Assembly: GCA_002238785.1 (NCBI GenBank)
Contig: MPNA01000007.1
Location: 15,583 to 79,582, forward strand
Length of the DNA: 64,000 nucleotides
DNA from: a bacterium OM1 bin76
Lineage (GTDB): Bacteria; Actinomycetota; Acidimicrobiia; Spongiisociales; ZC4RG35
Direction: 5' to 3'
Of the stretch, positions 1 through 11,523 are shown one piece after another (the stretch's first letter is position 1; every line of letters begins with the position of its first letter). The position numbers and the translations under genes are program-made. The notes beneath the pieces were generated by a model, which saw only the letters and a program-made list of their open reading frames with translations, was not told the origin of the DNA and ran no database searches.

Positions 1-99
1 AACGCTATCTCCGCCGCGGCGTTGATGTGATAACGATGGCATCTGTCGTTGATCCCGTCAACCACTTTCCCGCCCACCGGCGCGAGCAACTACTCAGCG

Positions 100-425
100 A
101 AGCCGTGAGGCTATGACTGCAGCCCCGTCAGATGCCCTCCATGTGGGGGACATATTGCGTTGGTGCGACATTGTGCTAACGGATCAGGGATAGGAAGAAG
201 TCGCTACCTTGCAGATGACCTTGACTCTTTGTTGGTCAGACTGGCAATGGAGCGGTGTCTACAGAACATCGGGGAAATACTCATCGCCTCAGCCCCTCCT
301 TATTGGATCGCAACAAGGACATCCCGAGCGCACAGATAGTCGGTTTGAGAAATGTGTTGGCGCATAAATACGGAGACATTGATCACAGCATTCTCTGGTA
401 CATAGGCTATAGAAGATGTGCCTGA
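100..425 (+). pseudogene. HepT/DUF86-family toxin (HEPN nuclease of a HepT-MntA pair), disrupted by at least two frameshifts or in-frame stops
   Basis: Three reading frames together give ...RYLADDLDSLLVRLAMERCLQNIGEILIA... then QIVGLRNVLAHKYGDIDHSILW, containing the DUF86 Rx4HxY motif (RNVLAHKY). No single intact ORF exists. The preceding 1-100 nt could be the 3' end of a cognate nucleotidyltransferase gene. Confidence 0.55.
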
Positions 426-597
426 GTTGGCACGGGCGTTGCGGGCACCCAAATAGCGTCCCCCTATGGTTTTTTGGTGCTTCGGAAATGAGCGGGGAGT
501 CGTGAATCCATCGAATGTGAGGGAGGGTCCTCCATTATCGGGTGTTGAAGCTATTCGCATCCGAGAGGGGGACCCTGTGGAGACTGATGGTAGGCGT

Positions 598-1300
598 ATG
601 TGCGAGTTGTTGGTTGGCCTGGGTGAGGTGGATCTGGTGGGTGTCGAGGAGTTGGCGGGTGACCGGTTGAGAGTGACGATCAGGTCTCGTGGATCTCGTC
701 CGGTGTGCGGGGAATGTGGTGGGAGGGTGTGGTCCAAGGGCGACCAGCCGGTGCGGTTGGTGGATTTGCCGGCGTTCGGTCGGCCGGTGCGGCCTGGGGT
801 GGCGCATAACGCCGCTGGGTGTGCCCCAGACCGACGTGCGCGGTGGGGTCGTCTTGCGGAACAGGATCTGTCGGTGGCGCCGGAACGGGCCTTGTTGACG
901 TCTCGGGCAGGGCGATGGGCCACCGCTCAGGTGGGTCGGTTTGGTCGCACGGTGTCGGAGGTGGCCGAGGAGTTGGGCTGTAGTTTGGCATACGGTGAAC
1001 CGCGAGATCGTCCGGTGGGGAGACGCGCTGCTGGAAGCTGACATCGATCGGTTTGGACAGGTGGAAGCGGTGGGGGTGGACGAGACCCTGTTCTGGCGTA
1101 AGGGCCGGTGGCGGAAGAAGCAGTGGTGCACCTCGGTGGTGGACGTTGGCGGCCGTCAGTTGTTGGACATAGTGCCTGGTAGAACGGCTGAAAGCGCCGC
1201 TAGTTGGTTCCGGAACCAACCTACCGAATGGTGTGAGGCAATGTCGGTGGGCGGTGTTGGATTTGTCAGGTCCCTACCAGGTGGCCTATGACCCGAGTTT
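598..1300 (+). pseudogene. ISL3-family transposase, N-terminal fragment, frameshifted and truncated
   Basis: ORFs 466..1041 and 941..1291 carry ISL3 hallmarks: Cys-rich N-terminus (PVCGECGG), RLVDLPAFGRPVR, ...VGVDETLFWRKGRWRKKQWCTSVVDV...LLDIVPGR. A third frame continues with VLDLSGPYQVAYDP and then stops. The reading is broken where the next element begins. Confidence 0.7.
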
Positions 1301-1439
1301 GGCGGGTCAGGGGGTTTGGTGGGAGGCGATTGGTGTGTTGACCTGGGGTTTTGTGTTGTGAGGTGCTGTTCCGGCACGATTTTGTAGGGGCGACAGGTTG
1401 TTGGTGTTGTGGGGATCGGGGTGCTATTGTTGTGGGGTA

Positions 1440-2804
1440 TGTTCGCTTGAGACGACCCGGCGTCGAAGGGGCGACAAGGTTTACGAGTACTTGTCGTTGG
1501 TGGAAACGGTTCGCAAGGGGTCGAAGATCGGCCATCGGACCCTGCTGCGCTTGGGAGAGGTCACTGCTTTACGCGAATCGGGACAGTTGGGACGGATCAT
1601 TTCGGCGTTGGAACGTCACCTCCACACCGAACGCGTCGACGTTGACGGAATAATCGCCGAGGGAGCACCCGCGGTGGGAGCGGTAGCCGCCGCGGCTGCG
1701 GTCTGGAAACAGTTGGATCTCGAGGGGGTTTCTTCTCACAGGTGGGCGCGGAACGCCGTGCTGACGTTTTGGAGGATGCGGTGTTCGCGATGGTGGCCAA
1801 CCGGCTGGTAGCCCCGTGTTCGAAACGTCGGTTGCCCGAATGGACAGAACATGACGTGATCATGCCTTCTGGGTGGTCAGCGCCGTCGTTGGACCAGTAC
1901 TACCGTGCCCTGGACGCCGTCGCCGACGTCAAAGAAGAGACCGAGGAGCACCTTTACCGGCGGTTGTGCAACCTGACCAACCTGAACCTTCGGCTGGTGT
2001 GCTATGACCTGACATCCACCTATTTCGAGGGTTCCACCCGACCCTCCGACGCGTTCCCGTCGCGGGTGTTCGGGTATTGGCGGGATCATCGCTCGGACAG
2101 GCCCCAGATCGTGATCGGTCTGTTGTGCACCACAGACGGGATCCCGATAGCCCATCATGTGTTCGCGGGGAACACCAACGACGCCTCCACCCTACCCGAC
2201 GTGTTGGAAGACCTGGCCAAGAGGTTCGCGGTGGGTCGGATCTGTGTGGTTTCCGACCGGGGTCTCATATCAGCATCTAACCTGGAAACGGTCACCCAAG
2301 CGGGGTTTGATCACCTGATGGCCACCAGACTCCACCGCGATCCGATCACCGCCCAAGCACTGGCGGCTGTCGACCAGGACACCGTGTGGGTTGAGATCCC
2401 CGAACACGGTTGCAGAGCCGCGGATGTCACCCTCGAAGACGGGACCCGCACGGTGGTGGTCGAAATGCGACGTTCGTGCCCGTCGGGACACCCAACGCAC
2501 CGCCGAACTGATCGCCGCTGCCGAAACCGGGTTGTTGGCGTTGGAACATCGCGTCCGCTCGGGAAGGCTCAAAGACCCGGCCAAGATCGGGAGAGCCGCG
2601 CAACGCATCCTCGGCACCGGGCGGGTCGGGCGACTGTTCGACCTCGAAATCGGACCAGGCCGGTTTCTCTACCACTACAACGAAGAAGCCCAAGCCTACG
2701 AGAAGCTGTTGGCGGGTCGTTATGTGCTGACCACCAGCCTCACACCCGCACAAGCCGACACTGGAATGAATCCCCCCGGCTTTTGTGGAGGCTTTCTATC
2801 TTGA
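1440..2804 (+). pseudogene. IS1634-like (IS4 superfamily) DDE transposase, split over three frames
   Basis: ORF 1398..1811 has GDKVYEYLSLVETVRKGSKIGHRTLLRLGEV, typical of an IS1634 N-terminus. ORF 1742..2845 has ...LVCYDLTSTYFEG...RDHRSDRPQIVIGLLCTTDGIPIAHHVFAGNTND. ORF 2391..2804 has ...FLYHYNEEAQAYEKLLAGRYVLTTSL, a typical C-terminus. There are two frame changes. Confidence 0.7.
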
Positions 2805-2855
2805 GAGGATGGAGTCTCATGGCCAGTAATAGTTCTGTTAGGTAATGCGACTGAG

Positions 2856-3125
2856 TTGCGTGAGCGTGCTGTGCGGATGGTCCTGGAAGGCGTCCGTGAG
2901 GGGGTGTATTCCTCCGAGTGGGCAGCGATCCGGGCGGTGGCGCAGATGCTGGGACCTACTCCCGAAACGGTTCGTAAGTGGGTTCGTAAGGCCGAATCGA
3001 GGGTCTCAGCGGCAGCGGTGGACCACAAACGTCGGATCGTTGAGTTGGAACGGGAGAACCGGGAGCTGCGGCGAGCGAACGAGATCTTGAAAGCTGCTTC
3101 GGCTTTTTTCGCGCGGGAGCCCTGA
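2856..3125 (+). CDS. IS3-family transposase OrfA (HTH / leucine-zipper)
   Basis: 89-aa MRERAVRMVLEGVREGVYSSEWAAIRAVAQMLGPTPETVRKWVRKAE...RIVELERENRELRRANEILKAASAFFA, a classic IS3 OrfA. Confidence 0.8.
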   Translation: MRERAVRMVLEGVREGVYSSEWAAIRAVAQMLGPTPETVRKWVRKAESRVSAAAVDHKRRIVELERENRELRRANEILKAASAFFAREP

Positions 3126-3143
3126 TCCGCGACCGCCAAGGTA

Positions 3144-4083
3144 GTGGCTTTCATCGATCGTTATCGGACCAGGTTCGGGATGCGGGCCGATCTGTCGGGT
3201 GCCTGGGCGAGCGCAATGTCGGAATGCGCCCCTTCCACCTACTACGCCTTCAAGTCCCGTCCGCCGTCAACAAGAGCCCAGCGCGACGGATGGCTTGTTG
3301 AACAGATCCGCCGCGTGCACCAGGAGAACTATGGGGTGTACGGCGCGGTGAAGGTATGGGCACAGTTGAACCGTGAAGGCACCCGAGTGGCGCGGTGCAC
3401 AGTGGAACGGCTGATGCGAAACACCGGTCCTGCGTGGTGTTTCCCGCGGGCGGCGCAAGGTGTGCACCACCGAACCCTCCGGGACTGACTATCCGGCTGA
3501 TCTGGTGGAACGGGACTTCACCGCCGGGGCGCCAGATCGTCTTTGGGTTGCCGATCTCACGTATATTCGCACGCGGGCTGGGTGGGTGTACGCGGCGTTC
3601 ATCATCGACGTGTACTCCAAGTTCATAGTGGGATGGCAGACCGCTACCACCCTCCGCGCCAGCCTGGCCGTGGACGCGTTGGAAATGGCTTTGGCCACCC
3701 GCCGGCGTCGAAACCCCGAGAAATTGATACATCATTCGGACAGGGGAAGCCAATATCTGTCCGTGCGGTACACCACCCGTTTGGCCGAAAGCCAGATCGT
3801 TTCCTCGGTGGGAAGCCGGGGCGACAGCCTGCGACAACGCCCTGGCCGAGACCACCATCGGTCTTTACAAGACCGAACTGATCAACCAACAGGGACCATG
3901 GCAAAACCTGGACCACACCACCTTCGCCACCCTCGAGTACATCGACTGGTACAACCACCGACGCCTACACGGAGGAATCACCCCCGACAACACCTACATC
4001 CCCCCCGCCGACCACGAAACCGCCTACCATCAAACCACCCCCAGAAAACCCGCAACCACACAAACAACCCACTCTCCATGAAA
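3144..4083 (+). pseudogene. IS3-family transposase OrfB (rve integrase core), internal frameshift near 3830
   Basis: DDE core motifs are present. The reading frame jumps between ORF 3460..4194 and the +1 frame, where the conserved C-terminal segment is encoded. Confidence 0.7.
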
Positions 4084-4174
4084 CCCGGGGAGGTTCAATC
4101 GAAGACAACCTCAATCTCATGCCCCCGACGACTACACAACTGGAACAGCGCCCACGACCTCTACAAATCAACTA

Positions 4175-4207
4175 GGGAGGGCAACCACCGCTAGAGCTTG
4201 CCCTCCC
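4175..4207. repeat. Perfect 10-bp inverted repeat (GGGAGGGCAA / TTGCCCTCCC) with a 13-nt loop at the IS3 right end
   Basis: Read directly from the sequence. No following T-run, so not a canonical intrinsic terminator. Confidence 0.5.
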
Positions 4208-4480
4208 TTACGTTCGATGGATTCCCGACTCCCCTGAGATGTCCGAAGAACCAGTAAACCAAAGGCTCCTATCAGGTCACATCCAGTCCAGGTCGGTGAA
4301 AACCGCCCCTGGCCAAAAGGCAGGCCGACAGATCGCGACAAAGGCACAACAACCAGAAATGTTGAGAGTCAGACGTCCCCTGGCAAGGGGCACCCCTATT
4401 ATAAGTGATATGTTGGGATTTGGTTGCTGGATTGGGCATTAATCTATCGAGGGGTTTTACTTGGGGCGTACTGCAACTCC

Positions 4481-5146
4481 TCACTCGTTTTCGAAAAACG
4501 TTGTTAGGTCGAAGGCATCGTTCAATATGGCGCCAACTATCAAACTCAACAAGGTGATGGCTGCCATACTCCACCATTTACGACGGTCCTCTAATGCGGA
4601 TACTCTCTCGGCAAGCGCAGTGGGATTATAGGTTGGGCCTCTGAGGTTACTGATGTGAGAATCGCTAATATTAACTGCATTCTGTCGCGGACCACAATAT
4701 AGATCCTCAGTTGCCTTGTCGAGAGAAACGTACCACAACTGGAAAGTCCGTTGGTCTTGTGTAAGGCTGATAGATTTGGAGCCTGCATTAAACACGGCGA
4801 AGATCAGTTTGCCTTTGTAGCCAGGATCAACGTGGAAGCCAGAGACATTTATCAATCCTTGCATCTTCTTGCTCGATTTCATTGACAGCAATCCGACGGC
4901 GTTGGCGGGGATTTCTACAACTTCGGAGATCAAGAGTTGAGCGAATTGTCCAGGGGGAATATTGACTCGTTCCTTATCATCTATTTTGACTCTGATCCTG
5001 GTTCCTGCGTTGGAACTATTGGTAACCCATGCTTCGTCTCCCATCGAGAGTTCATATGAACAGTTCTTAATGTGTGACTCATCGTATGGCTCGATCAAGC
5101 TCGGTAGTCTTGTCTTGAGGGTCTCACTACTCCAGAAACCGGACAT
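4481..5146 (-). CDS. dCTP deaminase/dUTPase-fold (Dcd-like) protein with a C-terminal transmembrane anchor; catalytic Glu replaced by Ala
   Basis: 221 aa. IEPYDESHIKNCSYELSMGDEAWV and GFHVDPGYKGKLIFAVFNAG align with Dcd motifs (E. coli: HRIDPGWSGCIVLEFYN), but the LEF glutamate is an alanine. C-terminal WWSMAAITLLSLIVGAILNDAF is a predicted TM helix. Strong AAGGAGA RBS upstream. AT-richer than the flanks. Confidence 0.7.
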   Translation of the reverse strand: MSGFWSSETLKTRLPSLIEPYDESHIKNCSYELSMGDEAWVTNSSNAGTRIRVKIDDKERVNIPPGQFAQLLISEVVEIPANAVGLLSMKSSKKMQGLINVSGFHVDPGYKGKLIFAVFNAGSKSISLTQDQRTFQLWYVSLDKATEDLYCGPRQNAVNISDSHISNLRGPTYNPTALAERVSALEDRRKWWSMAAITLLSLIVGAILNDAFDLTTFFENE

Positions 5147-5294
5147 TCCTATCTCCTTAGCTATTAGGACCTATCGATTCGGAAGGTGGAAAGGCCTTAC
5201 TATCTAACCGCCTGCTACATAGATTAGGATTACTTCGCGGTTTCGCAATTCCTACTTGTGCAATCCGGCTGTCTTGGGCTCCCTCCATGTCGTG

Positions 5295-5333
5295 GGAGGG
5301 GTGTTTTGCGGAGGGGTGTTTTGCGGAGGGGTC
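5295..5333. repeat. Tandem direct repeat, about 2.6 copies of the 15-mer GGAGGGGTGTTTTGC
   Basis: Read directly from the sequence, in the intergenic gap between the TS-like gene (5514) and the Dcd-like gene (5146). Confidence 0.6.
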
Positions 5334-5513
5334 TTGCCTAGTCCATAAGAAGGCACTCGCTGGAGTGCGACGCCGGGGCGGTGAACATAGTGTTAGGGGC
5401 GGTTCGACCGATTGCTCAGGTCTTTCGGGATCTTGGGGGTTCACAGGGCCGCTTTGGAATTGGGTGAGGGATAGCCTAGCTTGAGAAGCCAGCACAACCA
5501 GTTCCATCGCACC

Positions 5514-6569
5514 TCATCTTGCTCGGCCCACTGACCTGTATTGTTGACGTTCGTTCTGCGAGCTTATGCTAACCCTCCTCAACCAACGATGCCATAACTT
5601 TCTATACACAGGATTGGTGCAGGTGGCCATAGCGTGATCATGCATCTCATCCCACCCTAGCCTCCGTGCTATTTCACTGGCCAGCACGGCAAGCATGTTA
5701 CGGAATGCCTCCGGGCCTTCATCCCAACGGACGACTCTTTCCAGTTGTGGGCGCCGTAGGCCAGGCGCGATCAGTCGCTCCATCCTTCGGCCCAACTCTT
5801 TGAATGCCGCTTCTGATTTCTCCTTGGGGAGCGCAAGCGAGTCTGTGTTTCGTAGCCGGTTTGGCGGCGTCTGTGAGGCGAATACATTCTCTTCGTCATG
5901 TTCATACATGTGCAGGCTGTCGCTCAGTTGGTGATAGGGACCACAATCGACGCCAAGCCACCCGGCCACAACCTCTTGAAGACTGGTGAACTGTACGAAG
6001 TTGTGAGGAACCCCTAAGAAGAGATCATTGCTTCGTAGTACCTGAAGCCACTCCAGCTTCCCTTCGCGGACCTTCAACAGTGCGAACACATTGCAAGGGA
6101 CATCCCGACTGGTGGGCAAACCCTCAGGGTCGGGAAGGTCGACGGACGAGTCCCAGATTTGCAGTACAACCTGCCGGGTGTCCGGGTTACTGCTTAGCAC
6201 CTGATAGGCCCGAGTTAGTTGGTCTACCCCCATGTGGTAGCGGAGTCGATGCCCATAGGCCCCATGAAGGTGGGGGCCTTCTCCCACATAGTCGGAGAGT
6301 TTGCTGTTCCACGCCCGGAGGAAAGCAAGATCGTTACGACCTGTCATGATCCAAACGATCTCGGCAATGGCGAAGGCAACATTCATGGGAGGTTGGCGGG
6401 AAACCACCCATCGTTGTCGCGGATCATTGATGGTGATGGCTGCATGGAGGATTTCTTTGGTTGCACCACCTCTACTTGGTTGGAGGAGGACACCATGGCC
6501 TGCCCGGAATGCCTCCACGACTTGCTCCCAGACTTCATCTGCGTCTTGGCCTTCAAACGCCCTAATCAT
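5514..6569 (-). CDS. Thymidylate synthase-family (ThyA / pyrimidine-nucleotide C5 hydroxymethylase-like) protein, paralogue 1, with a ~90-aa C-terminal extension
   Basis: 351 aa, colinear with ThyA: AIAEIVWIMTGRNDL (ELLWFIKGSTN), GVDQLTRAYQVLSSNPDTRQVVLQIWD (DQL..IK.NPDSRRII.SAWN), VPCNVFALLKVREGKLEWLQVLRSNDLFLGVPHNFVQF ([36 protein letters not shown]). Nucleophile Cys retained. Asn equivalent to N177 retained. PCH becomes PCN and RR becomes RQ. Confidence 0.75.
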   Translation of the reverse strand: MIRAFEGQDADEVWEQVVEAFRAGHGVLLQPSRGGATKEILHAAITINDPRQRWVVSRQPPMNVAFAIAEIVWIMTGRNDLAFLRAWNSKLSDYVGEGPHLHGAYGHRLRYHMGVDQLTRAYQVLSSNPDTRQVVLQIWDSSVDLPDPEGLPTSRDVPCNVFALLKVREGKLEWLQVLRSNDLFLGVPHNFVQFTSLQEVVAGWLGVDCGPYHQLSDSLHMYEHDEENVFASQTPPNRLRNTDSLALPKEKSEAAFKELGRRMERLIAPGLRRPQLERVVRWDEGPEAFRNMLAVLASEIARRLGWDEMHDHAMATCTNPVYRKLWHRWLRRVSISSQNERQQYRSVGRAR

Positions 6570-8247
6570 GAGATGTTCCGAGAGGAGGTATCAGGCTGTT
6601 GATGCCCCACTTGGGGGGATACCAATACTCTATTGGCTCTGTTGAGGGGCGATAGATTTGCTTGATACGGGAACGGTTGCCGATGCCTTTGAAATCGGGA
6701 TGCTTAACGCGGGCATACTTTGAGACCTCGCAGAAGAGGTTCTGGCAGTCTATGAGCTGAAGTCTTCTGCCCCAAAGGTCTACAAACCGCAGGCCGAGGC
6801 GGTCGAACTCTTCTTCCTGGCGTTCGGTGACCATTCTTATGAGTTCAGCGTCGGTCAAACCGCCCAGGTCAGTGAAACATTTACGGACGCCGTCTATCGC
6901 CCCGGGGCCAGGAACGACGAACTCCATTTCTGAGAAGTCGATAACTTCGCTGTAGTTCAGGTCGGTCACGAATTGGTAGGCAAGGAAATCGCCGATGGAC
7001 GGGTAGGAGCGCAACAAACCGAAGGCGTCCCGCATCCTGCGTGTCCCTGCGATCCTCTTGGGTAACTCGTCTGCCATCATCCGCTCGATGAGCCGGAGAT
7101 GATTGCGGTGCTTTCGGGAATGTCCGAAGACGCGCCCGGCCGATGGCATAATGTAGGCGGCGGAATAGATTGGTCGACCCTCGGCGAGTGCTTGCGACAG
7201 CACCCCGTTGTAGGCGTCGAACGAGTATGACGAGTACTCAACATCCCCCAAGGCGGCTCTGAGCAGCTCCCAAGTCCCAATCCTGTTGAAAACCTTGAAT
7301 AGCAGGGTACGAAAGAACACTTCTTCTGAGGATTGTGGACCCTGGTAGATGACGTTGCGGATGAGGTACTGGCTTACCCGATCAGAGGCTCGGTATGCGT
7401 TAGTGAACTTGAAGCGGGCCAATATCGGGTCGTCCGTCCAGGGAGGTGAACAGCCTTCGAGTCGGCGAAAGAACACTTCTTGGCGTTTCACCGCGAACCG
7501 CCAATAGGTGTCATAGACAACGGTCGGCTTCGCCGGTGAGAGGCGTGGCATTTTCGGTGGCTGGAGTGTTCTGCCATCAAGGAGTGCTGGTTGGCCACTT
7601 AGCTGAGCCACTGCCGGAGAATCTTGCCGTTCGCTGAATCTGCGTACGGTAGAAATAATCGTCTTCCACGCCATGTCAAGGGCGTGCTCAACAGACGAGT
7701 CGTTGTGTAGCGTGACCACATGGGAGCGGATCTGTTCTCGCTTCGCCAGCGCCCGATACCCGTCCCGCAGGTCATCACCATTGTCTGAATCCGCACTCTC
7801 GCGCTCTACCAGAAACACCATGTCCGGCTTGATTTGCTTCCAGTGGAGTCGCTCCAGTTCGATCATCGCCTCCAACGAGGGCTCTGACACTCCAAATGCA
7901 CCGCCATAGACCCGTGTGGACCACCAGAAGCGGTCCAAGACTATCCAAGAGCCTGTACGGAGGGCAGGCAGGATGTGCTCTTCTACGGCCTCTATATGAG
8001 CCGCAATGTGCAGGATCTGAAGACTTGTCGCGTTGACCTTGCCGAGGCCAAAGCTGGGTGCGTCGTGGTGGAGGTCATAGACCAGACGGCCCAGAGAGCC
8101 TAACTGCCTCCCTGGAAAGGATAGGTTTTCGCAGGGAACGCCCGCCTCGTGGAGGCGGTTTGTGAATAGCTCGGCAAGGGTACTCTTACCGACGCCGTCG
8201 CGCCCCTCGAACACGATGAGCCTGCCCGGGGTTTGCTGCTCTGTCAT
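6562..8247 (-). CDS. Fusion protein: N-terminal dTMP-kinase-family P-loop (d)NMP kinase plus C-terminal ~340-aa domain of unknown function
   Basis: 561 aa. The N-terminus matches Tmk: LIVFEGRDGVGKSTLAELF (FIVIEGLEGAGKTT), LSFPGRQ (TREPGGT), ILHIAAHIEAVEEHILPALRTGSWIVLDRFWWSTRVYGG ([38 protein letters not shown]), PDMVFLVE. The C-terminal part (TVVYDTYWRFAVKRQEVFFRR...ILARFKFTNAYRASDRVSQYL...GIGNRSRIKQIYRPS) matched no family I could name. Its start overlaps the next gene (ATGA). Confidence 0.7.
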   Translation of the reverse strand: MTEQQTPGRLIVFEGRDGVGKSTLAELFTNRLHEAGVPCENLSFPGRQLGSLGRLVYDLHHDAPSFGLGKVNATSLQILHIAAHIEAVEEHILPALRTGSWIVLDRFWWSTRVYGGAFGVSEPSLEAMIELERLHWKQIKPDMVFLVERESADSDNGDDLRDGYRALAKREQIRSHVVTLHNDSSVEHALDMAWKTIISTVRRFSERQDSPAVAQLSGQPALLDGRTLQPPKMPRLSPAKPTVVYDTYWRFAVKRQEVFFRRLEGCSPPWTDDPILARFKFTNAYRASDRVSQYLIRNVIYQGPQSSEEVFFRTLLFKVFNRIGTWELLRAALGDVEYSSYSFDAYNGVLSQALAEGRPIYSAAYIMPSAGRVFGHSRKHRNHLRLIERMMADELPKRIAGTRRMRDAFGLLRSYPSIGDFLAYQFVTDLNYSEVIDFSEMEFVVPGPGAIDGVRKCFTDLGGLTDAELIRMVTERQEEEFDRLGLRFVDLWGRRLQLIDCQNLFCEVSKYARVKHPDFKGIGNRSRIKQIYRPSTEPIEYWYPPKWGINSLIPPLGTSHD

Positions 8248-9059
8248 TTGCCCGCCTTTAACTGTTCCAAGATTCTCTCGACATCCCGTGCCAGTTTCTG
8301 AAGGGATCTCTTTGTGCGATCGCGTTTCGCAGGACTTGCCACGCAGGTCACCTGGGTTAGCTGCCTACCCATCTCCTGGGCCATGAAACGGCCGAGCCGG
8401 CACAAGCCCAGATAGTTACCGTAGGCACGTTCATAGATGTACTGCGTGGCATAGAACCCTGTCACCGTCAACCCGTCTGAGCCTTGCTGCGCAAACGCTA
8501 CCTGTTGAAGGCAGGGAAAGCCTCTCATACGCTGATTGGTGTGGTCCCTGTGTGGGTCAAAGATCGCCGCTTGTAATGCTGACCTGCGATGGTTGCCTCT
8601 GTGCCATGTTTGGATGATGTGTTCCAGTTGGTTGACGCTGTCCCCGTTGGCGGCGTTGCGGCCGTAGGCGATGAGGCGTTGGAAGTAGACGCCGTTCCTG
8701 TTGCTAGCGTCCTTGAGCACACGCGGCATGATTTGTCTGTAACGTCGGTATAGCTGTTGACGATCTGCTTCCGGGTTCCAGAGCGAGACGGGGAAAATGG
8801 TGTTGGCGACCTTGTGACAGGAGAGGGATTTGGCTTCGGCACCCAAGGCATCATCAAGGAGTTCACGTATTGGTGCTACTTCCAGGGGCTCCCCATGGTC
8901 GAACCCGCGAATCACGACTGTTAGAGGCGCAATCTCACTCCTGGCCATCAAGTGGAGGAACGCCCTAGCCCAGGCGACGGAGAGGTTGCCCTCTTCAATC
9001 GTAAGTGATCTACCCATCCCCAGCTTCTTCCCAGTGCCGGTACAGGGCACGCCCCACAT
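8244..9059 (-). CDS. Thymidylate synthase-fold protein, paralogue 2 (divergent; most catalytic residues other than Cys are lost; C-terminally short)
   Basis: 271 aa. VPCTGTGKKLGMGRS (DRTGTGTLSIFGHQ), NQLEHIIQTWHRGNHRRSALQAAIFDP ([26 protein letters not shown]), GFPCLQQVAFAQQGSDGLTVTGFYATQ ([24 protein letters not shown]), NYLGLCRLGRFMAQE (NIASYALLVHMMAQ). Lacks the equivalents of R166, D169 and N177. The 5' end overlaps the ImmA gene. Confidence 0.6.
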   Translation of the reverse strand: MWGVPCTGTGKKLGMGRSLTIEEGNLSVAWARAFLHLMARSEIAPLTVVIRGFDHGEPLEVAPIRELLDDALGAEAKSLSCHKVANTIFPVSLWNPEADRQQLYRRYRQIMPRVLKDASNRNGVYFQRLIAYGRNAANGDSVNQLEHIIQTWHRGNHRRSALQAAIFDPHRDHTNQRMRGFPCLQQVAFAQQGSDGLTVTGFYATQYIYERAYGNYLGLCRLGRFMAQEMGRQLTQVTCVASPAKRDRTKRSLQKLARDVERILEQLKAGK

Positions 9060-9870
9060 ACCCGCGTCGCGAAACGCGGACGAACGTAGACCAAGAATTG
9101 CCGGCTTCCAGCCGGCCGACTCCTGGGCTGGTCGCTATGAAGATAGAGCCCTGCTCAATGTCTGAAAAGGGCTCGAGGCAGACACTCTCTGGCTGCGCTC
9201 CACCTAGGACCAATATGAGGTCACCCACTTCCACATCCACGGCCCTCCCGATCCAGTGGGTATCCAACACCAAGGCGGTCTGTGACGCGTACCACCCGAG
9301 GAGCAGCGATTGAGCTTTACGGGAGCCCACTCTCAACAGCGTCCTAGCCCGCATGCCCGGTAACACTTGGAGCGCGCTTCGCAGATGGTGAACCAGCGTC
9401 GCGTATCCAACGCCAAAGTAGCCGGCAACCATAAAAGCCTGCTCGGGTGTACAGTCCTCCATGCTCCACCCTCGAAGCGCAAATGCCTTGGATACCGCCA
9501 ACTTGGGCATGAGAAGAGCACCCGCAAAGCAATCCGCCATGAACTCCTTGGGATCGAAACGAGGGTTGTCCCATTGCCCAACCAGTTCGTCGATATCCAC
9601 TCCGTCACTCTGGTTGTGGTGACCAAGTTCGTGGGCACAGGTAAACGCCCGGCGGCCGGGTGGGCGTAACGAGGAGACGATAATAGTGGGAGTGGAAACA
9701 GATAGGTACATTCCCTCCATACTGGGAAGGTCCAGAAACCGAACCTCAATGCCAAGTTTCTGAGCGAGATCGTACACAGAGACAGCGTGGTCAAGCCCGT
9801 AGCCAACCGAAAGACGGGTACGGAGGGCCGCCGCCGTTGCCTCTCGGGCTATCAATCGCCGGTTGCTCAT
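9010..9870 (-). CDS. ImmA/IrrE-family (Peptidase_M78/DUF955, CapP-like) zinc metallopeptidase
   Basis: 286 aa with HEXXH at CAHELGHH. Sits immediately downstream of, and overlapping, an XRE HTH gene, the classic XRE/ImmA arrangement. Confidence 0.8.
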   Translation of the reverse strand: MSNRRLIAREATAAALRTRLSVGYGLDHAVSVYDLAQKLGIEVRFLDLPSMEGMYLSVSTPTIIVSSLRPPGRRAFTCAHELGHHNQSDGVDIDELVGQWDNPRFDPKEFMADCFAGALLMPKLAVSKAFALRGWSMEDCTPEQAFMVAGYFGVGYATLVHHLRSALQVLPGMRARTLLRVGSRKAQSLLLGWYASQTALVLDTHWIGRAVDVEVGDLILVLGGAQPESVCLEPFSDIEQGSIFIATSPGVGRLEAGNSWSTFVRVSRRGYVGRALYRHWEEAGDG

Positions 9871-10220
9871 TCGATGTGATTTCTCGGAGCGCGGAGCGCC
9901 TGGACAAGCTGGAGAATGCGGTCAAGGTCCTCTTCTCGCAACTTGCTCAACTCCCTCGCCGCTAGCTTCACGCGATCCGCAGCCAAGCTCGACTCCTCGT
10001 CCCCCTCACCCACGATCCAAGAAATACTGACCCCGTACATCTCAGCCAGCGCAGTGAGTTCCTCGGCAGATACCCTTCTGCGAGCTGCTTCGATCTCGGA
10101 AACCGTAGGACGGTGCCAGTCCAGACTCTTGGCTACCTGACCTTGGGTGAGACCTGCCATCTCTCTCGACAGGCGAAGACGTGATGCGATTGCCTTTCGC
10201 TTCTCTTCGTATTTGGTCAT
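9867..10220 (-). CDS. XRE-family helix-turn-helix transcriptional regulator (CapH/ImmR-like)
   Basis: 117 aa: ...LRLSREMAGLTQGQVAKSLDWHRPTVSEIEAARRRVSAEELTALAEMYGVSISWIV, an HTH_3-type motif. Confidence 0.8.
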   Translation of the reverse strand: MTKYEEKRKAIASRLRLSREMAGLTQGQVAKSLDWHRPTVSEIEAARRRVSAEELTALAEMYGVSISWIVGEGDEESSLAADRVKLAARELSKLREEDLDRILQLVQALRAPRNHIE

Positions 10221-10223
10221 CCT

Positions 10224-10508
10224 TTAGGCCTCAGAGCCGACATAGGAACAAAGGGAGTCCGCTATCTCGCCAACCGACAATGCACGCTTCCCATCCTCAG
10301 AAATGAAGGGGTTGTAGTTGCCGGGAAGCTCCACCTTTAGGGACTCCGAAAGCATGACGGTCGCTTCCACCCCGCTAAGGCTGTCGAAGCCCTCCACCCC
10401 AAACACCGGGCACGTTGACGCATCTATGCCAGCACTTGACCGCCCGCTCACCTCTTGGACCTCGACGATGACTTGAACCACCCTCTTCAGGATCTCTTGC
10501 TTGTTCAT
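10224..10508 (-). CDS. Small carrier-protein-like (ACP/PCP-fold) protein, first gene of the operon
   Basis: 94 aa. LKRVVQVIVEVQEV...FGVEGFDSLSGVEATVMLSESLKVELP resembles the ACP DSL phosphopantetheine-attachment motif and helix pattern. AGGAGG RBS 5-11 nt upstream of the ATG. This assignment is tentative. Confidence 0.4.
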   Translation of the reverse strand: MNKQEILKRVVQVIVEVQEVSGRSSAGIDASTCPVFGVEGFDSLSGVEATVMLSESLKVELPGNYNPFISEDGKRALSVGEIADSLCSYVGSEA

Positions 10509-11431: not shown

Positions 11432-11523
11432 CGGAGGCGGACGGGAATCGAACCCGCCGGGGATCGTTTGACCCCCCACCGGTTTTGAAGACCGGGGAGC
11501 CCACCAGGCGCTCGCTCGCCTCC
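11432..11523 (-). tRNA. selC: tRNA-Sec (selC-like), anticodon UCA, 92 nt, class II
   Basis: Reverse complement: GGAGGCGAGCGAGCGCCTGGTGGGCTCCCCGGTCTTCAAAACCGGTGGGGGGTCAAACGATCCCCGGCGGGTTCGATTCCCGTCCGCCTCCG. Anticodon stem CCGGT/ACCGG with loop CUUCAAA (identical to the E. coli selC loop), a long variable arm, T-loop TTCGATT, and 13 nt (8+5) between T-loop and discriminator. The 8th acceptor pair is an A.C mismatch. CCA is not encoded. Confidence 0.7.

Follow-up and report, generated by a model that had tools for sequence, protein, structure and literature searches.

What is the function of a protein that has the fold of dCTP deaminase (Dcd), lacks the catalytic glutamate of that enzyme and ends in a membrane helix? 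The question is raised by a gene at positions 4481-5146 (minus strand) of a 64,000-nucleotide stretch of contig MPNA01000007.1 from the Acidimicrobiia bacterium OM1 bin76; this whole stretch is called the window below. The open reading frame (ORF) has an ATG start, an AAGGAG Shine-Dalgarno sequence 6 nt upstream and a Pfam DCD match, and is clearly a real gene. Its product of 221 amino acids, a membrane-tethered protein of the Dcd/dUTPase fold, is named Dcd-TM here. We infer that Dcd-TM is an integral and widely conserved component of an anti-phage operon that is under CapH/CapP-like control and inducible by DNA damage or infection. The role that we tentatively favor is that of a dUTPase-type pyrophosphatase acting on deoxynucleoside triphosphates (dNTPs) for a defensive pyrimidine-modification pathway; both the activity and the substrate are predictions.

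Homology to Dcd was readily confirmed. The Dcd/dUTPase beta-barrel core spans residues 1-145 (4712-5146, minus strand), as defined by alignment with PDB entries, by the invariant residues of the family, and by structure prediction with AlphaFold2 (AF2) combined with Foldseek. Residues 9-139 match Pfam DCD (PF22769, E 4.9e-16), and further matches were found to Pfam dUTPase (PF00692, E 4e-5) and to the PHROG 'dCTP deaminase' family (E 1.5e-17). The initial annotation had described an alignment with Dcd along the whole length; the homology stands but is confined to about 155 of the 221 residues, and the remainder consists of a lid, a stalk and a transmembrane (TM) helix. The AF2 model, built from a 42-sequence alignment, has a mean pLDDT (predicted local distance difference test) of 88 and shows a beta-barrel, a weaker linker and a long C-terminal helix. 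With this model, Foldseek retrieved Dcd-fold structures with a TM-score(target) of up to 0.87, including 1xs4, 2v9x and 4xjc with a probability of 1.00.

The top matches by both sequence and structure are archaeal Dcd-like monofunctional dUTPases: that of Thermococcus pacificus (8y1w, PDB sequence match with E 9e-16), P45 of P. furiosus (9ln0, with a Foldseek E of 9e-13, a TM-score(target) of 0.87 and an rmsd of 2.1 A) and, also among the best archaeal matches, the Sulfolobus tokodaii enzyme (2yzj/2zdc). Dcd and Dcd-Dut structures of M. tuberculosis, E. coli, B. halodurans and M. jannaschii rank next. The structural comparison proposed in the initial annotation thus bore out the Dcd fold and placed archaeal dUTPases lacking the catalytic glutamate nearest to Dcd-TM. 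These enzymes (9ln0/9ln3, 8y1w, 2zdc/2yzj) share with it the Dcd-type beta-barrel, a C-terminal Tyr/Gly lid, the VDPG[WY]xG motif and a residue other than Glu (Met or Ala in the archaeal proteins) in the glutamate column. They differ in being soluble proteins of 150-170 amino acids without stalk or TM helix; their motifs RSSLAR and YDLR read K-S-S-K-K-M and YELS in Dcd-TM, they are housekeeping enzymes rather than operon components, and their identity to Dcd-TM is about 25%. E. coli Dcd and the bifunctional Dcd-Dut enzymes of M. jannaschii, M. tuberculosis and B. halodurans have the fold, the PF22769 domain, the Asp128-Pro-Gly element and the lid architecture in common with Dcd-TM. On sequence comparison, Dcd-TM is placed in a large uncharacterized Dcd-fold clade that is closest to the archaeal dUTPases.

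The most conspicuous feature of the active site is the missing glutamate. A HMMER alignment with E. coli Dcd (PDB 1xs4, an E138A mutant) places Ala117 (codon GCC at 4796-4798) in the column of residue 138, which agrees with the Glu-to-Ala replacement reported initially, and pairs K90/S91 with R110/S111, M95 with R115 and D107 with D128. Among 252 family members, the Glu138 column contains Ser in 161, Ala in 67, Gly in 18, Thr in 5, Cys in 1 and Glu in none, and alignment with these homologues revealed no catalytic glutamate elsewhere in the protein. A relocated glutamate was rejected as an explanation, since all alignments place Ala117 at the Glu column; the sole invariant glutamate of the family, E75, corresponds to a glutamate that is also kept in Dcd (LES/ExV strand). 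The other two residues of the Dcd triad S111/R115/E138, which reads S91/M95/A117 in Dcd-TM, are not conserved in the family either: the S111 column has 104 Ser, 66 Ala and 61 Phe, and the R115 column contains Phe, Met, Leu or Gln. With the deaminase triad absent family-wide, these proteins are, as judged from their residues, incapable of deamination.

The absence of the glutamate does not by itself indicate a dead protein. The archaeal dUTPases 9ln0 and 8y1w have Met in the same column (VDPGWDGNLTLMLFNAS), and since such Dcd-like enzymes are active without Glu, its absence is normal for a Dcd-fold pyrophosphatase. Trimeric dUTPases likewise carry a small residue at the position equivalent to Glu138; E. 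coli Dut has the Ser of its ISVWN motif there, and Ser is indeed the commonest residue in this column of the Dcd-TM family. The description as a 'deaminase-dead' protein is therefore correct in that the catalytic Glu is missing, but this is no one-off loss: it is the state of the entire family and also that of active archaeal dUTPases.

Several residues expected for nucleotide binding or dUTPase-type chemistry have been retained. The core motif S102-G-F-H-V-D107-P-G-Y110-x-G112 ... V118-x-N120-A is conserved; within it the S-G-F-H motif, D107, G109, G112 and N120 are invariant in the family, as are K94 and Y150, while residue 90 is Lys or Arg and residue 110 is Tyr, Phe or Trp. Dcd-TM thus has dUTPase motif III in the form D-x-x-Y-x-G (D107-P-G-Y110-K-G112 ... 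F-A117-V-F-N120), with a small residue (Ser, Ala or Gly) at position 117 in the family. In motif II the basic residue 90 is conserved and the Ser column contains Ser, Ala or Phe; motif I reads YELS, with Glu for Asp and Ser for Arg. The Gly-rich arm that forms dUTPase motif V is missing, and a lid of the Dcd type is present instead. The residues that appear to remain for nucleotide binding or catalysis of the dUTPase type are Asp107, a putative general base, Tyr110, Gly112, the basic residue 90, Lys94 and the Tyr150/Arg154 pair of the lid.

The C-terminal third of the protein sets it apart from characterized relatives. The lid arm (residues 146-169, 4640-4711, minus strand), recognized by alignment and column counts with T146, Y150, G152, R154 and I160 as its main positions, corresponds to the PYRGNYQG arm of the archaeal dUTPases, the segment L-Y150-C-G152 aligning with PYRG. 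In the lid and linker region, around residues 161-180, the AF2 pLDDT drops to 61-73. The lid is followed by a juxtamembrane stalk (residues 170-189, 4580-4639, minus strand), defined by conservation and by the AF2 helix, with the consensus G170-P-T-Y-N-P175-T-A-L-A-x-R-V-x-x-L-E186-x-R, in which G170 and P175 are invariant. The 4-3-4 spacing of hydrophobic residues in the stalk would be compatible with a trimeric coiled coil.

A single TM helix comprises residues 190-212 (4511-4579, minus strand), as indicated by hydropathy, homologues and a positive-inside bias. Its best hydrophobic 19-mer, MAAITLLSLIVGAILNDAF, has a mean Kyte-Doolittle value of 1.89 and is preceded by the positive patch RRKWW; AF2 predicts one continuous helix over residues 175-219, and a C-terminal hydrophobic 19-mer is found in 243 of the 252 homologues, so the membrane anchor proposed initially is a property of the family. 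The hydrophobic segment is preceded, on average, by 3.7 Lys and Arg residues within 15 positions and followed by 0.7, and the median tail is about 16 residues long; this bias suggests that the Dcd domain is cytoplasmic and the tail outside. The extracytoplasmic tail of Dcd-TM itself (residues 213-221 with the stop codon, 4481-4510, minus strand) is short, and that of relatives is hypervariable and often rich in Thr, Ser and Pro. Dcd-TM is probably a tail-anchored protein of the inner membrane, and probably trimeric. The mean frequency of the major residue is 0.68 in the core, 0.54 in the lid, 0.64 in stalk residues 170-189, 0.31 in the TM helix and 0.25 in the tail. The stalk is as constrained as the catalytic core, and the TM helix, with its low conservation, behaves as a sequence-unconstrained anchor.

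This architecture raises the possibility that Dcd-TM is not an enzyme but a nucleotide-gated membrane effector or sensor. Its Dcd-fold trimer would bind a modified dNTP, either made by the operon or specific to a phage, and closure of the lid would be transmitted through the stalk to three TM helices, perturbing the membrane and aborting the infection. Membrane effectors of defense operons usually combine a ligand-binding domain with a TM segment; PycTM, Cap15 and TM-ThsA, for example, respond in this capacity to cyclic-nucleotide or ADP-ribose signals. Dcd-TM resembles them in having a ligand-binding-type domain fused to a TM segment within a predicted defense operon. The near-universal TM helix and the conservation of the stalk that connects lid and TM helix to the level of the core also fit such a role. 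It is less easily reconciled with a TM helix that is conserved in hydrophobicity only and is present once per subunit, or with the invariance of the putative general base Asp107 and of lid residues, as in active enzymes. We regard this alternative as possible, though on the unlikely side. Also speculative, and in our view somewhat less likely, is an immune effector of a new class, a trimeric dUTPase-fold receptor in which closure of the lid on its substrate would act on three tail-anchor helices via the coiled-coil stalk, so that a modified dNTP (5-hydroxymethyl- or phosphomethyl-dUTP from the operon, or a phage-specific dNTP) would be read as an abortive-infection signal at the membrane. Pyrophosphatase, nucleotide sensor and membrane effector all remain live candidate functions.

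The distribution of the family helps to identify the type of process in which Dcd-TM acts. A set of 5.8 billion proteins contains 1039 homologues, the closest of which (86-100% identical) are from metagenome-assembled genomes of Acidimicrobiia. Searching with a profile built from 42 members yielded 6109 representative clusters (50% identity) with E<=1e-3, of which 758 had E<=1e-30. The 150 best representatives have lengths of 205-372 amino acids, their matches extend into the stalk and TM part of the profile, and none of them is a soluble form or a fusion to another domain. Relatives are encoded in 417 of 185,579 species genomes, with a patchy spread over Acidimicrobiia, Cyanobacteria, Planctomycetota, Verrucomicrobiota, Acidobacteriota, Proteobacteria and Bacteroidota. 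Nine plasmids carry a family member, and cultured carriers include Sinorhizobium, Sphingomonas, Xanthomonas (X. cannabis), Nostoc and, on a plasmid, Acinetobacter. A phage origin was considered and rejected, as 2.9 million IMG/VR contigs gave a single match and GenBank phages encode only ordinary Dcd proteins of at most 33% identity.

In the window, Dcd-TM is the last gene of a seven-gene operon, which reads ACP-like protein, CapH-like helix-turn-helix (HTH) protein, CapP-like M78 peptidase, X271, Tmk + HMUDK_hel fusion, thymidylate synthase (TS)-like enzyme and Dcd-TM, all on the minus strand. The first gene (10224-10508) encodes a protein of 94 amino acids that resembles an acyl carrier protein (ACP), with a GFDSL serine motif and a weak PP-binding match. 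It is followed by a XRE-family HTH repressor of 117 amino acids (9867-10220; Pfam HTH_31 6e-15) and by an M78 metallopeptidase of the CapP/ImmA/IrrE type with 286 amino acids (9010-9870; Peptidase_M78 1.3e-18). X271 (8244-9059, 271 amino acids) is a divergent TS-fold protein that has kept the catalytic Cys (GFPCLQ) and matches NCBIfam TIGR03283 (archaeal-TS, 2.5e-11). It gave no Pfam match, and since a PDB sequence search was empty as well, its homology to TS was established by profile-profile alignment with hhalign (probability 93%, catalytic Cys aligned). As called, the M78 and X271 genes overlap by 50 nt (9010-9059), an overlap that is also called in the closest relative (loci L087/L088); the true start of X271 may lie further downstream.

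The fusion protein (6562-8247, 561 amino acids) combines a thymidylate-kinase-like P-loop domain at about residues 8-150 (Thymidylate_kin 2.8e-15; PDB Tmk matches 2e-8) with a helical domain of the HMUDK_hel/aGPT-Pplase1 type at residues 243-521 (HMUDK_hel 1.4e-111). This helical domain matches 503 phage records, from ViI-like and M6-like thymidine-hypermodifying phages, one of them annotated 'aGPT-Pplase1 domain'; a PDB sequence search retrieved no solved relative of it. The TS-like enzyme (5514-6569, 351 amino acids) has the catalytic Cys motif DVPCN, matches Thymidylat_synt (1.3e-21) and phrog_5131 (6e-61), and scores below all NCBIfam ThyA cut-offs; it is probably, to judge from its sequence, a C5 hydroxymethylase or methylase of pyrimidine deoxynucleoside monophosphates (dNMPs). 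Its counterpart in the closest relative (L087, 4627-5634) has 335 amino acids and a different 3' end, which may point to a frameshift or alternative stop in one of the two genes. The closest relative, with a Dcd-TM that is 86% identical, contains all seven genes in unchanged order, and because unrelated genes follow its Dcd-TM gene, the operon ends with Dcd-TM. TIR and Nmad2 genes are missing from both operons. PADLOC 2.0, which lacks models for Dcd-TM, for X271 and for the TS-like gene, matched only the regulators and the kinase P-loop.

To see which partners are retained, all ORFs of 83 Dcd-TM loci were clustered and partners were counted within +/-9-10 kb; the counts start from Dcd-TM loci and are to be read in that direction. 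HMUDK_hel is present in 73 of the 83 loci, X278, a TS-fold protein of the X271 family, in 56, the HTH protein in 52 and the M78 peptidase in 50. Less frequent partners are a MazG_C-type predicted kinase (33), the ACP-like protein (28, upstream of the HTH gene), a 4'-phosphopantetheinyl transferase (PPTase, ACPS; 26), TS (24), the Tmk-like kinase (23), TIR + Nmad2 (20), a papain-like peptidase (11) and DUF1643 (10). Most often the genes are arranged as HTH-M78-X278-DcdTM-(Tmk+HMUDK_hel)-TS, at times followed by TIR-Nmad2, so that Dcd-TM lies among enzyme genes; in most relatives it is placed tightly within the operon. The initial annotation had missed this context, in which Dcd-TM is no free-standing protein but a conserved operon member. 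A minimal core of Dcd-TM, HMUDK_hel/aGPT-Pplase1 and MazG_C occurs at 33 loci. Precomputed Pfam annotation, consulted in three cases, places the clusters in defense islands with TIR, AbiEii, type I restriction-modification, HEPN, toxin-antitoxin, LD_cluster2 and MazG_C genes.

These context statistics effectively refute the view that Dcd-TM is an ordinary housekeeping Dcd or dUTPase that lies beside a mobile island, to which we attach next to no probability. The RefSeq name of its homologues, 'deoxycytidine triphosphate deaminase', would favor it, but a housekeeping enzyme is difficult to reconcile with the loss of the triad throughout the family, scores below the NCBIfam cut-offs and a TM anchor, nor does it agree with the patchy occurrence, the conservation of partners in 73-76 of the 83 loci and an atypical GC content.

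The gene neighborhoods also bear on a membrane effector. In its favor, the window operon has no other obvious effector, TIR-Nmad2 being absent, and Dcd-TM is often the last gene and sometimes paired with c16/Y199, a family of helical proteins of about 200 amino acids encoded directly upstream of Dcd-TM at 24 of the 83 loci. On the other side, Dcd-TM is often found between enzyme genes, and the 20 loci with TIR-Nmad2 already contain that module, 6 of the 20 also encoding a separate protein with two TM helices. The latter, c37, has about 230 residues with two N-terminal TM helices, flanks TIR-Nmad2 in L023, L027, L032, L037, L044 and L079, and could, independently of Dcd-TM, serve the DS-4-like module as a membrane effector. 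The c16 and Y199 clusters are homologous to each other (hhalign probability 96%) and all-helical with a H-D-x-x-[FY]-H motif; examples are L004 9430-10035, L029 9324-9923, L075 9403-10014 and L090 7487-7990. They gave no Pfam match, are missing from the window, and are placed like a dedicated partner of Dcd-TM.

The regulatory genes suggest when the operon is expressed. The HTH and M78 proteins match the PADLOC models capH (6.9e-12) and capP (4.7e-17), respectively, which stand for DNA-damage-responsive regulators of the ImmR/ImmA and DdrO/IrrE type. Regulators of this type induce immune operons upon DNA damage through repressor cleavage that single-stranded DNA activates (10.1101/2022.04.27.489752; PMC13228613). 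The described CapH/CapP pairs are divergent from the operon that they control (10.1101/2022.04.27.489752), whereas the pair in the window is co-directional with it and has overlapping stop and start codons. The frequent presence of peptidase genes (M78 in 50 loci, papain-like in 11), together with the invariant G170 and P175 of the linker between lid and stalk, allows one to imagine that Dcd-TM is a membrane scaffold or latent enzyme that is released or activated when a peptidase cuts the G170-P-T-Y-N-P175 linker. This argument is purely architectural; moreover, CapP-type peptidases cut their HTH partner and not effectors (10.1101/2022.04.27.489752; PMC13228613), and 33 loci have no M78 peptidase. 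We therefore consider proteolytic release very improbable.

The operon core is related to a defense system with demonstrated activity. DS-4 of E. coli, validated as an anti-phage system without a mechanism being given, is made up of TS, dNMP kinase and HMUDK_hel proteins together with a ThsB-like TIR protein and Nmad2 (DeWeirdt et al., DefensePredictor, Science 2026, PMC13092281). The TS-like protein of the window is 26% identical to the DS-4 TS WP_087900468.1 (BLASTP, E 4e-18), and both systems have a core composed of a TS-like protein, a P-loop nucleotide kinase and HMUDK_hel. The 20 Dcd-TM loci that also contain TIR-Nmad2 connect the two, several of them being exactly DS-4 plus Dcd-TM. DS-4 lacks Dcd-TM, the second TS-like protein (X278), the CapH/CapP-like regulators and the ACP-like gene, whereas the window operon lacks TIR and Nmad2 and has a kinase that is Tmk-like and fused to HMUDK_hel. 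By analogy, the window operon would also serve in defense.

A second system is closer in composition to the minimal Dcd-TM core. In the same study, a 'MazG-C kinase + dUTPase + aGPT-Pplase' combination is listed as a predicted, unvalidated defense system (PMC13092281, Fig. 6F / S12C), and its authors attribute the earlier in-silico prediction of several such domains to Burroughs et al. 2015 NAR. Its components equal the minimal Dcd-TM core, and its dUTPase is presumably a member of the Dcd-TM family. The window version has a Tmk-like kinase instead and two additional TS-like genes. The parts of PMC13092281 visible to us do not discuss the TM anchor or the missing Glu for the predicted system.

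The gene content of the operon furthermore parallels phage pathways for the synthesis of modified pyrimidines. In T4, the dCTPase/dUTPase gp56, the dCMP hydroxymethylase gp42 and the dNMP kinase gp1 together lead to DNA with hydroxymethylcytosine (hmC), and phages with hydroxymethyluracil (hmU) in their DNA use a dTTPase-dUTPase, a dUMP hydroxymethylase and a kinase. Thymidine-hypermodification genes are known in phages ViI, M6, SP10 and PhiW-14 (PMC5889632, PMC8989533). The same logic of pyrophosphatase, TS-like hydroxymethylase and dNMP kinase, complemented by an HMUDK_hel/aGPT-Pplase1-type domain, can be recognized in the window operon. Differences are that Dcd-TM genes are cellular, controlled by a repressor/peptidase switch and located in defense islands, and that the phage pyrophosphatases are soluble, whereas Dcd-TM is membrane-tethered and essentially absent from phages.

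According to the pathway that we tentatively favor, Dcd-TM would hydrolyze dUTP and perhaps also dCTP or dTTP, releasing the dNMP and pyrophosphate. This hydrolysis would drain the canonical dNTP and supply the dNMP substrate to the TS-like enzymes, after which a C5-modified product such as 5-hydroxymethyl-dUMP would be re-phosphorylated by the kinase domain. Upon induction, the modified nucleotide would enter replicating, mainly phage, DNA, in which the HMUDK_hel module may process the modified pyrimidine further. The stalk would couple the lid of the enzyme to the membrane. This pyrophosphatase reading is suggested by the Glu-less archaeal dUTPases being the nearest relatives, the retention of dUTPase-type residues and the position of the gene among enzyme genes. 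It is also in line with the DS-4-like core, the cellular and patchy distribution in defense islands, and an unconstrained TM helix that fits an anchor rather than a channel.

A number of observations weigh against a pyrophosphatase that feeds a modification pathway. Conservation is lacking for the motif-II Ser (Dcd S111, Dut Ser72), and the N-terminal YDLR motif reads YELS, so classical dUTPase chemistry may have been altered or lost; the loss of the Ser in half of the family and the YELS motif also suggest relaxed catalysis, a point in favor of an effector. The scores with the NCBIfam dut models TIGR00576 and NF001862 are 28.8 versus a cut-off of 102.6 bits and 20.9 versus 103 bits, and that with the dCTP_deam model TIGR02274 is 70.0 bits versus a cut-off of 92.8, so that Dcd-TM belongs to neither of these equivalogs. 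Any TS-like gene is missing from about a quarter of the loci, implying that feeding a TS-like enzyme is not the universal role of the family, and some systems also encode a MazG-type NTP pyrophosphatase. DS-4 protects E. coli without any Dcd-TM. Finally, a ubiquitous TM helix and a highly conserved stalk are not explained by a pure enzyme model.

Hydrolytic activity could also serve the opposite purpose, namely self-protection. As a 'sanitizer', Dcd-TM would hydrolyze the toxic modified dNTP of the operon, or dUTP, and thereby restrict how much of it is built into host DNA, in the manner of a housekeeping dUTPase reserved for this system. Such a role agrees with a fold and residues resembling those of dUTPase, with the tight linkage to presumed producers of 5-substituted dUMP or dUTP and with the fact that Dcd-fold pockets accept dTTP (PDB 2qxx, 4a6a, 2j4q). 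However, co-expression from one inducible operon would cancel the output of the pathway, the membrane anchor would be unexplained, and DS-4 needs no such protein. We consider this explanation improbable.

The genes for carrier proteins hint at additional chemistry. Although the PP-binding match of the window protein is weak, ACP-like relatives reach 30 bits for PP-binding, above the cut-off (e.g., L044 1949-2233 and L069 4920-5207), and ACPS genes for 4'-phosphopantetheinyl transferase are found, for example, at L060 9582-9980 and L090 2283-2657. The pairing of an aGPT-Pplase1-type domain with the thiol of a carrier protein suggests that the modification chemistry involves a nucleophile borne by a protein or cofactor, and possibly a linkage between DNA and protein through the ACP-like protein. 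For the two small-protein families upstream of the HTH gene (cluster 6 and c27), homology could not be demonstrated (hhalign probability 11%).

A complete related system is present at L090, on the conjugative plasmid pSfreNXT3a of S. fredii NXT3 (NZ_CP024308.1, 5345-13033), where its genes are NXT3_RS19405-19450 and its neighbors are VapBC, RES-Xre and an integrase. Further versions in cultured hosts are those of Sphingomonas (L046/L048), Xanthomonas cannabis (L075) and a plasmid of Acinetobacter ESL0695 (L089). In RefSeq, the genes of the S. fredii system are named 'deoxycytidine triphosphate deaminase', 'thymidylate synthase' (twice), 'nucleotide kinase domain-containing protein', 'NTP pyrophosphohydrolase family protein' and 'holo-ACP synthase', and these separate labels conceal that the proteins belong to a single system.

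Within the window, Dcd-TM stands somewhat apart from the other genes of its operon. The spacer between the TS-like gene and Dcd-TM measures 367 bp (5147-5513), in agreement with the gap noted initially, and in the closest relative (L087/L088) it is retained at about 400 bp with about 85% identity. It carries a 15-bp tandem duplication, CCTCCGCAAAACACC on the coding strand, that is specific to the window; the duplicated unit reads GGGGTGTTTTGCGGA on the plus strand (5296-5330), and the duplication does not occur in the otherwise similar spacer of L087/L088. An Rfam search found no match in the spacer; its sole match in the region of 1-12 kb was the tRNA-Sec gene. A simple scan for sigma-70 promoters and terminators over 4300-5700, of a kind ill-suited to Acidimicrobiia, gave no more matches than shuffled sequences, which leaves the separate promoter proposed initially as a mere possibility. 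The GC content is 46.7% in Dcd-TM, 55-59% in the other operon genes and 63% in the remaining window, and a value below that of both operon and window suggests that Dcd-TM was acquired modularly.

The operon as a whole is bordered by signs of mobility. Remnants of insertion sequences (IS) cluster at 1-4200, directly downstream of Dcd-TM, and include a DDE_Tnp_1 transposase ORF (1742-2845), an rve integrase-core ORF (3460-4194) and other, overlapping ORFs. In the closest relative (L088), IS genes flank the same operon on the opposite side, which suggests that the island moves together with IS copies or from one to another. The tRNA-Sec gene (11433-11523, minus strand; Rfam RF01852, 76.7 bits) lies outside the ACP-like end of the operon, about 0.9 kb from its start. 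Given the GC content of 55-59% versus 63% and the IS elements at the other end, the island may have been inserted at or near tRNA-Sec.

A domain that is presumably the same was flagged in silico in 2026, and, as far as PMC13092281 could be read, the TM and stalk architecture of Dcd-TM has not been described before. The operons described here represent a larger and phylogenetically broad relative of DS-4 with an extra, invariant, membrane-tethered dUTPase-like subunit, and the analysis corrects the database label 'dCTP deaminase' for proteins predicted to be unable to deaminate. If the pathway reading is true, bacteria would be using for immunity what phages do when they build hmU or hypermodified-T DNA, with Dcd-TM as the entry enzyme that diverts dNTPs. 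If Dcd-TM is a membrane effector instead, no nucleotide receptor of the dUTPase fold would have been linked to a membrane before it, and it would represent a metabolic fold recruited as a second-messenger receptor. In either case, the family, with at least 758 clusters at 50% identity, provides a testable handle on defense by pyrimidine modification.

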